A DNA stretch of 1,565 nt from Escherichia coli (GTDB lineage Bacteria; Pseudomonadota; Gammaproteobacteria; Enterobacterales; Enterobacteriaceae). The stretch is from NCBI RefSeq assembly GCF_024223415.1, contig NZ_CP100510.1; one strand, 5' to 3'. The notes beneath the pieces were generated by a model. It did not search any database. It was not told the DNA's origin and saw only the letters and a list, made by a program, of their open reading frames with translations. A program made the position numbers and the translations under genes. Positions 50 through 1,565 of this stretch are shown here, piece by piece (position 1 is the stretch's first letter; each line of letters starts with the position of its first letter).

Positions 50-74
50 GGTCAGGGCTTCGCCCCGACACCCC
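50..74. repeat. 25-bp perfect inverted copy of the oriT hairpin segment (exact reverse complement of 1386-1410)
   Basis: GGTCAGGGCTTCGCCCCGACACCCC at 50-74 is the exact reverse complement of GGGGTGTCGGGGCGAAGCCCTGACC at 1386-1410. The asymmetric flanks (1 nt one side, 5 nt the other) also match, so this is a true inverted duplication and not just the hairpin's own near-palindromy. Identity stops exactly at both ends. Confidence 0.9.
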
Positions 75-110
75 GCATCAGTGCGTACGTGCTCAATGTG
101 GTTTCCGGTT

Positions 111-171
111 CTCTTCCGCTTCCTCGCCCACTCGCTCACTAACGTTCGGTCGCTGGGGCTGCGGCGAGCGG
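111..171. other. Conserved ColE1/pMB1 origin-proximal block (candidate primosome-assembly / single-strand-initiation site)
   Basis: CTCTTCCGCTTCCTCGC (111-127) and GGCTGCGGCGAGCGG (157-171) are identical to the flanks of the block CTCTTCCGCTTCCTCGCTCACTGACTCGCTGCGCTCGGTCGTTCGGCTGCGGCGAGCGG that I recall lying about 45-125 bp downstream of the replication start in pBR322/pUC (similar in p15A); the middle is diverged. Same orientation as the oriT match. Function as a pas/ssi site is inferred. Confidence 0.55.
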
Positions 172-476
172 TGCCACCTCTCGCATGTTGTCGGTGATTC
201 CGCTGTTGTTCTTTCGGGGATAAGTCGTCAGATAGCCCTTCAAACGCGCTCAGAAGCTCTCAGACGCACGAAACGGGGTTTAAATGCCCGTCAGGGCATG
301 GAAGGCGCGAAAAACGCTTACAGAGCGTTTCAGGAGGTCAGGCGCGCCGATACCCCTAGCCAGGGGCTTTCAGGTCGCCAGGAACCGCGCCAGCCCCCTG
401 CAAAGCCCATTTGCACGGTACAGGCAGCCACTCGGTTGGTAGGTGGTCGTAGACCGTCGGTGTTACAGCGATGGGG

Positions 477-559
477 GTCTGGGGTTCTCCCCAGACGGTT
501 TCCGGTTGCGCTCAAGGCGCTGCCGGAACCGTGGCGGCTCGATCGTTCTGGAGATCGGG
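477..559. ncRNA. Cluster of three consecutive GC-rich stem-loops; candidate RNA I / RNA II-like antisense-control region (strand, ends and function undetermined)
   Basis: SL1 477-496: perfect 8-bp stem GTCTGGGG/CCCCAGAC, loop TTCT. SL2 497-530: GGTTTCCGG...CCGGAACC outer stem (one bulged T) plus inner GCGC/GCGC stem, loop TCAAG. SL3 538-559: CGATC/GATCG core stem, 8-nt loop GTTCTGGA. Three hairpins in about 85 nt is the RNA I architecture. Weak convergent promoter candidates flank it (see findings). No canonical terminator found. Confidence 0.3.
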
Positions 560-622
560 GAGCAAAAACACGCAAGGGATTTTGAGGCGGCAAAAGAGCA
601 ATGCAGGATAGACAACCCGATG

Positions 623-640
623 TCAAATGTTAACATTTGA
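623..640. repeat. 18-bp perfect palindrome TCAAATGTTAACATTTGA in the AT-rich spacer between the gene's 3' end and the stem-loop cluster
   Basis: Exact self-complementarity across 18 bp, seen directly. Lies in a locally AT-rich island at about 600-670; function unknown (protein-binding site, unwinding element or promoter element). Confidence 0.9.
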
Positions 641-686
641 ATCAGATTGTCCAAAAACGGGGTTTTTGCCTGTGCCTGCCGCTGGC

Positions 687-1166
687 TCAATTTGAAAACA
701 TGGCCATGATTCGGCGCTGAATATCACCGTCTTTGTTGACCAGTGTTTTAGTGACAAACGCCGCGTAGTTTTTAGATGTGTTGTATCCCTTCCAGACTTC
801 ATGTGGATCGAGTGCATACGCACAAACCTTACCAGCAACAGGAATTCTGACTAACGCGTTTTTTGATTCTAAGTAGTTGAGCCAGCGCTTAATTGTGCTT
901 CGGCTAACACCCAATTTATCTGCTAAAAACTGCTGATCGGCAACAACAGCACCGCATGAGGGATCTATGTGCTCAGCTAAAAACGAGTAAAGCGGTATTG
1001 CTACAACTCCCTGCTTGTCCTTCGACAGTTCTCGGATCCTTTCCCAGCCCTTCTGATAAACCTGGGTGAATGGGCCGTTATTTTTCGGATCTGATTCCGA
1101 TTCTTTGTTTAATTTTTCCAGTTCTTTTAGACGCTTTTTTCGCTGCTCTTCAGTCCCGATATACAT
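687..1166 (-). CDS. 159-aa winged-helix (HTH) DNA-binding protein; best guess a small-plasmid replication initiator or autoregulatory maintenance protein (RepA of tiny pKL1-type plasmids, or RepL-like). Family assignment is from memory and unverified; a cargo transcriptional regulator is the alternative.
   Basis: Only long ORF with coding-like composition. ATG is the reverse complement of 1164-1166, preceded by a GGAG Shine-Dalgarno (rc of 1174-1177) with a 7-nt spacer; stop TGA is rc of 687-689. Helix-turn-helix at about residues 77-98 (DQQFLADKLGVSRSTIKRWLNY, encoded about 873-938) followed by a wing-like segment (ALVRIPVAGKVCAYALDP). N-terminal 30 residues are K/E-rich. Upstream region is dense in operator-like repeats. 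Confidence 0.8.
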   Translation of the reverse strand: MYIGTEEQRKKRLKELEKLNKESESDPKNNGPFTQVYQKGWERIRELSKDKQGVVAIPLYSFLAEHIDPSCGAVVADQQFLADKLGVSRSTIKRWLNYLESKNALVRIPVAGKVCAYALDPHEVWKGYNTSKNYAAFVTKTLVNKDGDIQRRIMAMFSN

Positions 1167-1185
1167 GGTAAATCTCCACGGTCTA

Positions 1186-1225
1186 ATGATGGCTCAAATA
1201 TAAGCCATCATAGCTCAAACGTAAA
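1186..1225 (-). promoter_or_regulatory. Candidate sigma70 promoter of the 159-aa gene overlapping a 9-bp perfect inverted repeat (candidate autoregulatory operator)
   Basis: On the minus strand: -35 TTTACG (rc of 1220-1225), 17-bp spacer, -10 TATATT (rc of 1197-1202), predicted start about 25-30 nt upstream of the ATG. Inverted repeat ATGATGGCT (1186-1194) / AGCCATCAT (1203-1211) has the -10 hexamer in its 8-nt spacer. GCTCAAA recurs at 1192-1198 and 1213-1219, 21 bp apart. Promoter assignment is by consensus match only. Confidence 0.5.
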
Positions 1226-1246
1226 CCATGATAGGTCGACCTAGCT

Positions 1247-1292
1247 CACACATGCGTGAGCTAACCTTAGACCACACATGCGTGAGCTAACC
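1247..1292. repeat. Two tandem 20-bp perfect direct repeats CACACATGCGTGAGCTAACC (1247-1266 and 1273-1292, period 26 bp); iteron- or operator-like
   Basis: Exact 20/20 identity seen directly. Each copy has internal dyad symmetry (CTCAC-ACATGC-GTGAG); the first copy extends to an 8-bp stem TAGCTCAC/GTGAGCTA. They lie 22-70 bp upstream of the predicted -35 of the gene. Related AGCTCA/TGAGCT half-sites recur at 1212-1217 and 1304-1309. Confidence 0.85.
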
Positions 1293-1355
1293 CATAATGC
1301 AAGTAGCTAAAAAATCAATAACTTACAAAATCGCCCTTAAATATCTTTTCTGCTG

Positions 1356-1385
1356 AAAGTGTTGCGCAAAGCGGAACACTTTTTT
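1356..1385 (+). terminator. Terminator-like hairpin followed by a T-run on the plus strand, directly abutting the oriT hairpin
   Basis: AAAGTGTT (1356-1363) pairs with AACACTTT (1375-1382), plus an inner CGC/GCG stem around an AAA triloop, followed by TTT (1383-1385) and then GGGG. The T-run follows the hairpin only on the plus strand. No convincing upstream plus-strand promoter was found, so the role is uncertain. Confidence 0.3.
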
Positions 1386-1446
1386 GGGGTGTCGGGGCGA
1401 AGCCCTGACCCAGTCACGTAGCGATAGCGGAGTGTATACTGGCTTA
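1386..1446 (+). other. ColE1/pMB1-type origin of transfer (bom/oriT): recognition hairpin plus conserved nic region; predicted nic CTGG|CTTA between 1442 and 1443
   Basis: GGGGTGTCGGGGCGAAGCCCTGACCCAGTCACGTAGCGATAGCGGAGTGTATACTGGCTTA matches my recollection of the pBR322 bom region (GGGTGTCGGGGCGCAGCCATGACCCAGTCACGTAGCGATAGCGGAGTGTATACTGGCTTA) with about 2 substitutions; the 36 bp ending at CTGGCTTA are identical. Imperfect hairpin GTCGGGGC-GAA-GCCCTGAC at 1391-1409. Which strand is nicked is assumed from the motif orientation. Confidence 0.8.
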
Positions 1447-1565
1447 CTCCTCTGCAAGCCTTACCAGCTGTGATTTTTGCCAGATTTCACGCTCTCAACG
1501 TTCAACAGCTCCATCATGGTTTTGCCGTCCGTTCACCGCTAAAACGCCTCAGAAATCGGGACAGG

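Follow-up and report, generated by a model that had tools for sequence, protein, structure and literature searches.

The window, i.e. the whole stretch of DNA that was analysed (1565 bp), is a complete circular plasmid of Escherichia coli belonging to the Col(MG828)/pKL1 family, in agreement with the original prediction, which had considered a small circle. To judge from its sequence, it is very probably a relaxase-less mobilisable plasmid ('pOriT') carrying two head-to-head oriTs of different specificity, and the hairpin common to both oriTs would explain its 25-bp inverted repeat. This repeat is neither a within-plasmid duplication nor a paired structural element. This 1.5-kb plasmid is very common in E. 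coli and has no transfer genes of its own, and the two oriTs would explain how one of the commonest tiny plasmids of this species spreads without any of them. Two helper routes could be used, one provided by IncI-complex conjugative plasmids, the other by ColE1-type Mob plasmids when a conjugative helper is present as well.

The plasmid and its inverted repeat

Sequence comparison confirms the exact 25-bp inverted repeat that had been noticed: positions 50-74 (copy A, GGTCAGGGCTTCGCCCCGACACCCC) are the exact reverse complement of positions 1386-1410 (copy B, GGGGTGTCGGGGCGAAGCCCTGACC), whereas about 1e-9 such pairs would be expected by chance per 1565 random bases. A repeat search extends the inverted repeat to 34 nt at 88% identity, an extension that looks fortuitous. 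The distance of 1.3 kb between the copies holds on the linear map; it is an effect of linearisation, as the arms are only 204 bp apart across the circle junction, with both nick sites in between. Both copies and the 204-bp spacing are also found in five relatives (L001-L005), whose whole-plasmid matches to the window have about 80% coverage and 91-96% identity. PLSDB contains the whole plasmid, 100% identical, from at least 12 independent assemblies, its relatives are assigned the replicon type Col(MG828), and the full two-oriT module is found in 330 of 5,426 complete genomes. Some members of the family bear the MOB-suite label 'non-mobilizable'.

The two oriT regions and their surroundings

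Copy B belongs, as originally predicted, to a ColE1-type oriT (bom), which extends over positions 1386-1446 on the plus strand. Copy B (1386-1410, plus) is the distal hairpin of this oriT, an exact repeat with stem GTCGGGGC/GCCCTGAC and loop GAA, which forms an 8-bp stem when folded as single-stranded DNA. From the hairpin through the nic, positions 1387-1446 are identical to ColE1 positions 1521-1462 at 59 of 60 nucleotides (98.3%). The ColE1 counterpart of the 25-mer differs from copy B by two mismatches and is the single copy of the hairpin found in ColE1, consistent with the claim that ColE1 has no second, inverted copy. The ColE1-type oriT of the window is 100% identical to that of many small mobilisable plasmids, and in plasmids whose only oriT is of the ColE1 type (H69), the match to the initial 61 nt of the query, with the 25-mer at their start, reaches up to 100%. 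Within the plasmid family, mean identity is 98.8% for copy B (over 13 relatives) and conservation reaches 99.4% for the core (1411-1446). The nic, CTGG|CTTA, is presumably located at 1442/1443 on the plus strand, the position reportedly given by Varsaki et al. (2003).

No mbe genes were found within the window, using the ORF list and the family search. The mobilisation in trans of plasmids that are bom+ and mob-, such as pBR322, is established. For the ColE1-type oriT of the window, the MbeA-type relaxase that cuts it would come in trans, from a ColE1-like Mob+ plasmid in the same cell.

Copy A belongs to a different oriT, of the IncI1/R64 type, located on the minus strand. Its nick-distal part occupies positions 1553-1565 and its remainder positions 1-74, the nick region thus crossing the coordinate origin of the window. 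The remainder is composed of what is left of the nick region (1-4), repeat A (5-21), repeat B (28-44) and copy A (50-74, minus), which is the distal 8-bp-stem hairpin of this oriT. When positions 1553-1565 and 1-74 are aligned with positions 66947-67033 of R64 (NC_005014), 80 of 87 nucleotides are identical without any gap, and a BLAST of the copy A region against IncI oriTs gives E = 2e-29. Copy A is itself identical to R64 at 25/25 nt, the identity covering the 25-mer and the following 9 nt, and three IncI plasmids (R64, L006 and L011) each have the exact 25-mer once, at their oriT. At the nick region, GCACATCCTGTCCCG, all 15 positions agree with R64, and other IncI plasmids have the same sequence. 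By homology, we take the nick to lie at 1562/1561 on the minus strand, within the IncP/IncI-type sequence ACATCCTG|TCCCG. Repeat A, the predicted NikA-binding arm, reads GACGGTATTACATTTGC compared to GACGGTATTACAATTGC in R64 (16/17), and its 8-nt spacing to the nick is unchanged. In IncI plasmids, the segment homologous to the R64-type oriT lies directly upstream of nikA, and in one relative (L008) nikA directly follows the same module.

The original prediction of a second, inverted oriT next to copy A is therefore borne out as to presence and orientation, but this oriT is of the R64 type, rather than a degenerate nic core like that of ColE1: the reverse complement of about 10-49, which had been read as such a core, is the R64-type repeat region including the NikA-binding repeat A. 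Among the roles that had been proposed, a second relaxase-binding site comes closest, although the relaxase system would be a different one, NikA/NikB.

The single-stranded 1-74 region folds into two hairpins, with the same shape as the R64 oriT. Repeat B is degenerate, with 13/17 positions identical to R64 and 14/17 complementary to the window's own repeat A, and the predicted repeat A/repeat B stem is weaker (-19.5 kcal/mol) than that of R64 (-26.7 kcal/mol). According to Furuya & Komano (1997), as cited in PMC4743918, the NikA-binding repeat must be precisely located, and according to Furuya & Komano (2000), as reported in PMC5863519, the two sets of R64 inverted repeats are required for transfer termination. 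As termination in R64 uses the repeat A/repeat B pair, the degeneracy of repeat B could lower its efficiency in the window.

Each oriT would thus have, on its own transferred strand, the hairpin, the protein-binding site and the nick in canonical order, the R64-type one (hairpin 74-50, repeat B 44-28, repeat A 21-5, minus strand) being a candidate substrate of the NikA/NikB proteins of I-complex conjugative plasmids. With this order the hairpin would be the last to enter the recipient. In R64, the hairpin presumably refolds in single-stranded DNA for the termination step. The inverted duplication would then result from the same conserved distal hairpin being present in both oriT families, and from the two origins facing each other.

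The two nick sites converge and are 119 bp apart. The variable spacer between them (1447-1552) contains indels, has a mean identity of 86% and is confined to the family of approximately 1.5-kb plasmids (511 PLSDB records, 82-100% identity). In the family alignment, the oriT elements appear as conserved islands (94-99%) compared to the spacer (86%) and the upstream flank (56%). On the other side of copy A, positions 111-172 (plus) form a ColE1-like segment, with 82-84% identity to ColE1 positions 1367-1308 and to a ColE1-like plasmid, and 75% to CloDF13. Its ColE1 counterpart sits between the oriT and the replication region, and this segment is probably a single-strand initiation or primosome assembly site.

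The only conserved gene of the plasmid is rep (687-1166, minus strand), which encodes a 159-aa helix-turn-helix protein (Pfam HTH_36 at 4e-6) whose annotation in relatives is RepA or HTH protein. Upstream of rep, a repeat search detects a pair of 25-bp direct repeats with a palindrome inside each (1242-1292, plus), which are putative Rep-binding iterons or an operator. The ORFs of the window and the family search revealed no relaxase, accessory protein, T4CP or T4SS genes, and an Rfam scan of the window gave nothing meaningful, RNAI/RNAII being absent. ORF 1-585 (194 aa), which overlaps copy A and is annotated as 'rep protein' in some records, was rejected as a gene, with no family match and a reading frame that is frameshifted or truncated in 7/13 relatives; coding constraint is consequently not the source of the conservation of copy A and its oriT.

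Variation of the copies and alternative explanations

The two copies vary independently. Of 32 distinct metagenomic modules, which were picked solely via their nick cores, 8 have two identical copies and 24 have copies with 1-4 differences, and the polymorphisms of each copy track its own oriT family. The copies also differ in 6/14 PLSDB relatives, a seventh being left unscored on account of an alignment gap, and the orientation is the same in all 14 aligned relatives. Mean identity of copy A in the plasmid family is 96.9%, and its variants in two other plasmids (L014 and L007) preserve the stem. A loop variant common to both copies is found in a few modules (L021 and 2/32 of the metagenomic ones).

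All these results have to be considered in the light of other possible origins of the repeat. One is base pairing between the two 25-mers within the single strand being transferred, which would join its 5' and 3' ends in a panhandle that aids termination or recircularisation, close to the long-range stem of the original prediction. The intact single-stranded module does fold into a 25-bp stem (-59.5 kcal/mol, z = -6.5) that is far more stable than the local hairpins (-6.6 and -4.5 kcal/mol), but such a stem is automatic for any perfect inverted repeat. Since 24 of the 32 modules carry 1-4 mismatches between the copies, and the copies of six PLSDB relatives differ as well, perfect complementarity is not maintained. 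Furthermore, this pairing would abolish the local hairpins, which are structurally conserved per oriT family (L014, L007), and the same hairpin works as a single copy in R64 and ColE1, all of which makes pairing of the copies very improbable. The repeat could alternatively be a recombination substrate, with the 25-mers or oriTs causing the 204-bp segment to invert, or leading to gene conversion or to core swapping between plasmids, as an evolutionary side effect. In favour of this, a 1395-bp Salmonella plasmid (L023) has an inverted ColE1 core abutting the hairpin and flank that lie beside the R64-type core in the window, another record (L024) is a cointegrate of window-type and L023-type plasmids joined at their ColE1-type oriTs, and the modules with one loop variant in both copies point the same way. 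However, a search for inversion junctions detected no isomer of the window plasmid in 2155 matching records, of which three have at least 80% coverage (L023, L024 as the cointegrate, and one record flagged as an artefact), and the single orientation of the aligned relatives speaks against inversion. In addition, a 25-bp repeat is of marginal length for RecA-dependent recombination, and oriTs of different types are not joinable by one relaxase. This explanation, like the oriT-oriT recombination envisaged originally, is thus distinctly unlikely.

Still less can be said for a MITE-like mobile cassette carrying oriT with the 25-mers as its terminal inverted repeats. A 254-bp unit with perfect 25-bp inverted repeats at both ends does fit this description, but target-site duplication is absent, with TTTTTT and GCATCA as its flanks, each of its halves, 'terminal repeat' included, is homologous to a separate oriT family in which the hairpin is internal and single-copy, and the whole unit is found only in the window plasmid family and its derivatives; we regard a cassette as extremely improbable. 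A degenerate second ColE1-type oriT at copy A, as first proposed, has a vanishingly small probability: the loose resemblance of the reverse complement of 10-49 to the ColE1 nic core is outweighed by its far better alignment to repeats A and B of R64, by the intact R64-type nick sequence and by the absence of the CTGG|CTTA motif. Hardly any weight can be given, finally, to an assembly artefact or a mis-joined circle, or to the absence of the repeat from relatives, which had been named as reasons to dismiss it. Nothing points to such an error except that the repeat spans the linearisation point, and the same architecture is found in the identical independent assemblies, in many diverged relatives, L001-L005 with both copies among them, and in 51 metagenomic contigs.

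Comparison with known plasmids

The reading as two oriTs of different specificity can be set against known systems. On its nicked strand, the R64 oriT (NikA/NikB, MOB_P) has the same order as the window, an 8-bp-stem hairpin, a 17-bp inverted repeat, 8 nt and the nick. In contrast to R64, the window has no nikA or nikB in cis, its 17-bp inverted repeat has a degenerate outer arm (13/17), and its R64-type oriT is located on a 1.5-kb, rep-only plasmid where it faces another oriT. The ColE1/pMB1 bom (MOB_HEN/MOB_P5, MbeA-D) resembles the window over the 60 nt from hairpin to nic (98% identity), and in both a single-strand-initiation-like segment is found further on from the oriT. The window differs from ColE1 in having neither mbe genes nor an RNAI/RNAII replicon, and in the extra 135 bp or so, containing the R64-type oriT, that separate the nic from the ColE1-like segment.

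Relaxase-less plasmids with two oriTs have been described. pEC156, a ColE1-type plasmid, lacks mob genes and has two functional oriTs, an F-type one and a 93-bp R64-type one (84% identity to R64). R64drd11 mobilises it, and removing both oriT loci together abolishes mobilisation (PMC4743918). It is like the window in lacking a relaxase, in having two oriTs of different specificity and in the R64-type one being without nikA, whereas its partner oriT is F-type instead of ColE1-type and its replicon is another one. The oriTs of pEC156 have no common element and, as a result, no inverted repeat is found there. On the other hand, pKPN2 has an R64-like oriT, yet is reported as not mobilised by R64drd11 (PMC4743918), so that sequence similarity is no guarantee of function. 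The small cryptic plasmid pBuzz is described by Moran & Hall (2019) as having two inversely oriented oriTs and as mobilised by a B/O plasmid. On this description it is, like the window, tiny and rep-only, with two inverse oriTs related to I-complex oriTs. An 'oriT_pKL1' is listed as experimentally validated in the R64 family (10.1101/2024.01.30.577996), and may correspond to the segment of the window. In the open-access literature, no paper was found tying Col(MG828) plasmids to an oriT architecture. The two oriTs of pBuzz are reportedly both of the same I-complex type, on a plasmid with rolling-circle replication, whereas those of the window are of different families. Both kinds of oriT, and the pattern of relaxase-less oriT plasmids, were already known; the window provides a clear worked example and no new principle.

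The hairpin appears from these alignments to be a conserved element common to IncI, ColE1-type and, more distantly, CloDF13 plasmids, the oriT of the latter containing a homologous hairpin, GGGTGGTCGGGCGTGAGCCTGAC. One further possibility is that the 25-nt hairpin is a universal, interchangeable oriT module. It could serve as a recombination joint at which small plasmids exchange their nick cores (ColE1-type, several I-complex types), and could also be the nick site of CloDF13-like relaxases. L023 and the window do have the hairpin and its downstream flank in common, with different nick cores. The reported cleavage site of the CloDF13 relaxase is GGGTG/GTCGGG, located at the hairpin's own 5' foot (cited in PMC5935869); this sequence is not present at the hairpin feet of the window, where both strands read GGGTGTCGGG, with one base fewer. 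Such a module is unlikely; if the hairpin were also a CloDF13-like nick site, it would offer the 1.5-kb plasmid a third or fourth route of mobilisation. The ColE1, R64 and CloDF13 oriTs have one common hairpin at varied distances from different nick sites, which may interest specialists.

Two convergent origins on one small circle

The 25-bp inverted repeat is real, as the reverse complement of 1386-1410 (copy B, plus strand) matches 50-74 (copy A, minus strand) exactly over 25 nt, whereas random sequence of 1565 bases would contain about 1e-9 such pairs. The window constitutes an entire circular plasmid, on which the two arms of the repeat lie 204 bp apart, and not 1.3 kb as on the linear map of the original prediction. 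At least 12 PLSDB records, each of 1565 bp and from sources including humans, animals and water, match it at 100%, and identity is 99.8% for the plasmid of 1564 bp carried by E. coli ABU 83972; all the matching 1565/1564-bp records are of replicon type Col(MG828). Both copies are also present, at the same 204-bp spacing, in diverged relatives whose whole-plasmid matches have about 80% coverage and 91-96% identity. Together with the identical independent records, these relatives exclude an assembly artefact.

Copy B belongs to a segment (1387-1446, plus strand) that has 98.3% identity with ColE1 1521-1462, recurs at 100% identity in many small mobilisable plasmids and is, by its sequence, a ColE1-type oriT (bom). 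It corresponds to the distal hairpin of bom, folding as single-stranded DNA into a stem GTCGGGGC/GCCCTGAC with a GAA loop (-6.6 kcal/mol); ColE1 itself has one copy of this hairpin. The bom nic, reported as CTGG|CTTA (Varsaki et al. 2003), would fall at 1442|1443.

When the 254-bp module bounded by both copies, across the coordinate origin, was used as the query, the database search divided it into three parts by match range: its first ~64 nt recur in thousands of ColE1-type plasmids, its middle matches only the window's own plasmid family, and its last ~87 nt (window 1553-1565 + 1-74) find their matches, at 88-92%, in large IncI conjugative plasmids. In IncI plasmids, the homologous ~87-nt segment is found directly upstream of nikA-nikB, the R64 counterpart (66947-67033) adjoining nikA at 67048. 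On the minus strand, 80/87 positions are identical to R64, without any difference over the 25-mer and the following 9 nt. Repeat A, the NikA-binding arm by homology, is conserved at 16/17 positions and lies at R64's 8-nt spacing from the nick; its partner, the outer arm of the 17-bp inverted repeat, is degenerate, with 13/17 matches. The nick region GCACATCCTGTCCCG is the same as in R64. Repeat A, this spacing and the nick position are defined here as reported by Furuya & Komano (1991, 1997), in agreement with the core of 'nick region and repeat A' that PMC4743918 cites. The R64-type nick would thus lie on the minus strand, at 1562|1561, and the single-stranded fold of the region has the two-hairpin shape of R64 oriT. 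The alignment, the nick region, repeat A and the shared fold all identify copy A as the distal hairpin of a second, IncI1/R64-type oriT. The suspected second inverted oriT beside copy A is therefore present but of another type: a degenerate ColE1 site is ruled out, as the region aligns to R64 oriT.

On the circle, hairpin B, the ColE1 core with its nic, a 106-bp variable spacer, the opposite-strand R64-type nick and core, and hairpin A follow one another, so arranged that the origins converge with their putative nicks 119 bp apart. Since each origin is canonically ordered on its own transferred strand, its own hairpin would enter last. Among 13 relatives, with the window as the reference, mean identity is 98.8% for hairpin B, 99.4% for the ColE1 core, 94.1% for the R64-type nick region and repeat A, and 96.9% for hairpin A; it is 86.4% for the spacer, which contains indels, and 55.7% for the upstream flank. 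Both origins are conserved islands in variable surroundings; three relatives carry other, swapped-in I-complex-type repeat variants.

Origin of the match between the hairpins

The exact 25-mer is single-copy in three IncI plasmids, R64 among them; in plasmids without an R64-type site, ColE1-type oriTs reach up to 100% identity (H69) over the leading 61 nt of the module query, which begin with the 25-mer; and CloDF13 has a more distant homologue. Its presence at these single-type origins makes the 25-mer a conserved component common to the IncI, ColE1-type and CloDF13 oriT families. Two facing origins that both carry the consensus hairpin automatically form a perfect inverted repeat. CloDF13 nic, reported as GGGTG/GTCGGG (cited in PMC5935869), lies at the foot of the homologous hairpin (9752-9775); at this place both copies in the window (1386-1396, 64-74) read GGGTGTCGGG, with one base fewer.

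The special roles that were proposed for the repeat find no support. The copies differ in 6 of the 14 PLSDB members (a seventh is unscorable because of an alignment gap). In a metagenome scan anchored on the two nick cores alone (51 contigs, 32 distinct modules), they are identical in 8/32 modules and differ at 1-4 positions in 24/32. Across both sets, only 3 modules have the same variant in both copies. Each copy follows the polymorphisms of its own family (loop A/C and a pMB1-like variant for copy B, C13T for copy A). Such variation speaks against selection for pairing of the copies; the stem that forms when the intact module is folded is a consequence of the repeat, for all its length, and no evidence of function. 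As the hairpin variants of two comparison plasmids (L014 and L007) retain the local stem, the conserved unit appears to be the local hairpin.

Inversion by recombination between the hairpins is likewise not supported, as no inversion isomer of the window plasmid turned up when the junction that inversion would create was used as the query. At a coverage of at least 80%, this search returned three records: a 2967-bp cointegrate, a record flagged elsewhere as an artefact, and L023, a Salmonella plasmid whose ColE1 core adjoins the hairpin and downstream flank seen in the window. L023 hints that cores have been shuffled in evolution at the shared hairpin, but its arrangement shows no programmed function. 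A MITE-like cassette bounded by the 25-bp repeats is rejected, because target duplication is absent and each half is a member of a separate oriT family.

Related arrangements

L023 (CP066327.1, 1395 bp), without annotated gene or replicon type, contains two convergent oriTs with this hairpin in common (673-1054): a variant P-type core with a nick-like GTATCTTG|TCCCG on one strand, and a ColE1-type core beside the window's downstream flank on the other. The cointegrate (NZ_CP138471.1, K. pneumoniae) joins a window-type and an L023-type 1395-bp plasmid, with the ColE1-type oriT (~65 bp) at both junctions, an arrangement compatible with recombination at oriT, whether oriT-specific or homologous, or with an assembly artefact. 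In the E. coli L26 chromosome (NZ_CP146250.1, 1216324-1222577), a window-like plasmid segment with the oriT module and rep is flanked by two IS26 copies, the arrangement that IS26 cointegrate formation would leave. The ColE1-like L007 (NZ_CP024434.1, 4715 bp) has both oriT types back to back (1013-1455), with hairpins pointing inward and rop between them; the pairing thus recurs in other replicons in another geometry. The Col(MG828)-type CP070405.1 (5160 bp) has the double-oriT module directly followed by nikA (1420-2020) and, elsewhere, another copy of the hairpin as well as a second I-type oriT; it could represent an intermediate or cointegrate between the window's family and nikA-bearing small plasmids. 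NZ_CP027139.1 (1197 bp) corresponds to window 182-1378 and lacks a 368-bp segment holding both oriTs and the ColE1-like segment, being either a natural oriT-less deletion derivative or an assembly artefact.

Mobilisation and other elements of the plasmid

Genes for a relaxase, an accessory protein or a coupling protein are lacking from the window, whose sole conserved gene encodes a 159-aa helix-turn-helix Rep. From its sequence, it is best read as a relaxase-less plasmid mobilisable via two independent helper systems, each 25-mer of which would serve its own origin. These elements and this strategy are already known. pEC156, without mob genes, carries a 93-bp R64-type oriT (84% to R64) and an F-type oriT, and is mobilised by R64drd11 and F, mobilisation being lost on joint removal of both loci (PMC4743918). 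Moran & Hall (2019) describe pBuzz as having 'two inversely oriented oriTs', and a curated collection of oriTs with experimental validation lists 'oriT_pKL1' in the R64 family (10.1101/2024.01.30.577996). pKL1, a natural 1549-bp plasmid, is taken to be the prototype of the window's family, which includes a 1549-bp member (L012). In R64, the inner repeat arm is reported to be enough for initiation, whereas the inverted repeats are required for termination (Furuya & Komano 2000, as summarised in PMC5863519). pKPN2 has an R64-like oriT, yet R64drd11 reportedly failed to mobilise it (PMC4743918), so that sequence alone does not guarantee oriT function.

A 194-aa ORF from position 1, overlapping copy A, is spurious, as it is frameshifted or truncated in 7/13 relatives. 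Directly upstream of hairpin B lies a terminator-like hairpin (1356-1385, AAAGTGTTGCGC AAA GCGGAACACTTT then TTTTTT), which was not among the hits of a consensus terminator scan. Most relatives have another sequence there, with a 12-13-bp stem retained by compensatory changes (e.g., GGGTGTTGCG...CGCAACACCC), and the hairpin is missing from three lineages (L013, L017 and L018). Upstream of rep lie two 25-bp direct repeats (1242-1292, with starts 26 bp apart) that each include the palindrome TAGCTCACACATGCGTGAGCTA; they are probably an operator or iterons bound by Rep. Finally, 111-172 resembles, at 82-84% identity, the stretch that separates oriT from the replication origin in ColE1; it is probably a primosome-assembly or single-strand initiation site, and would reach the recipient early if transfer begins at the ColE1-type nic.
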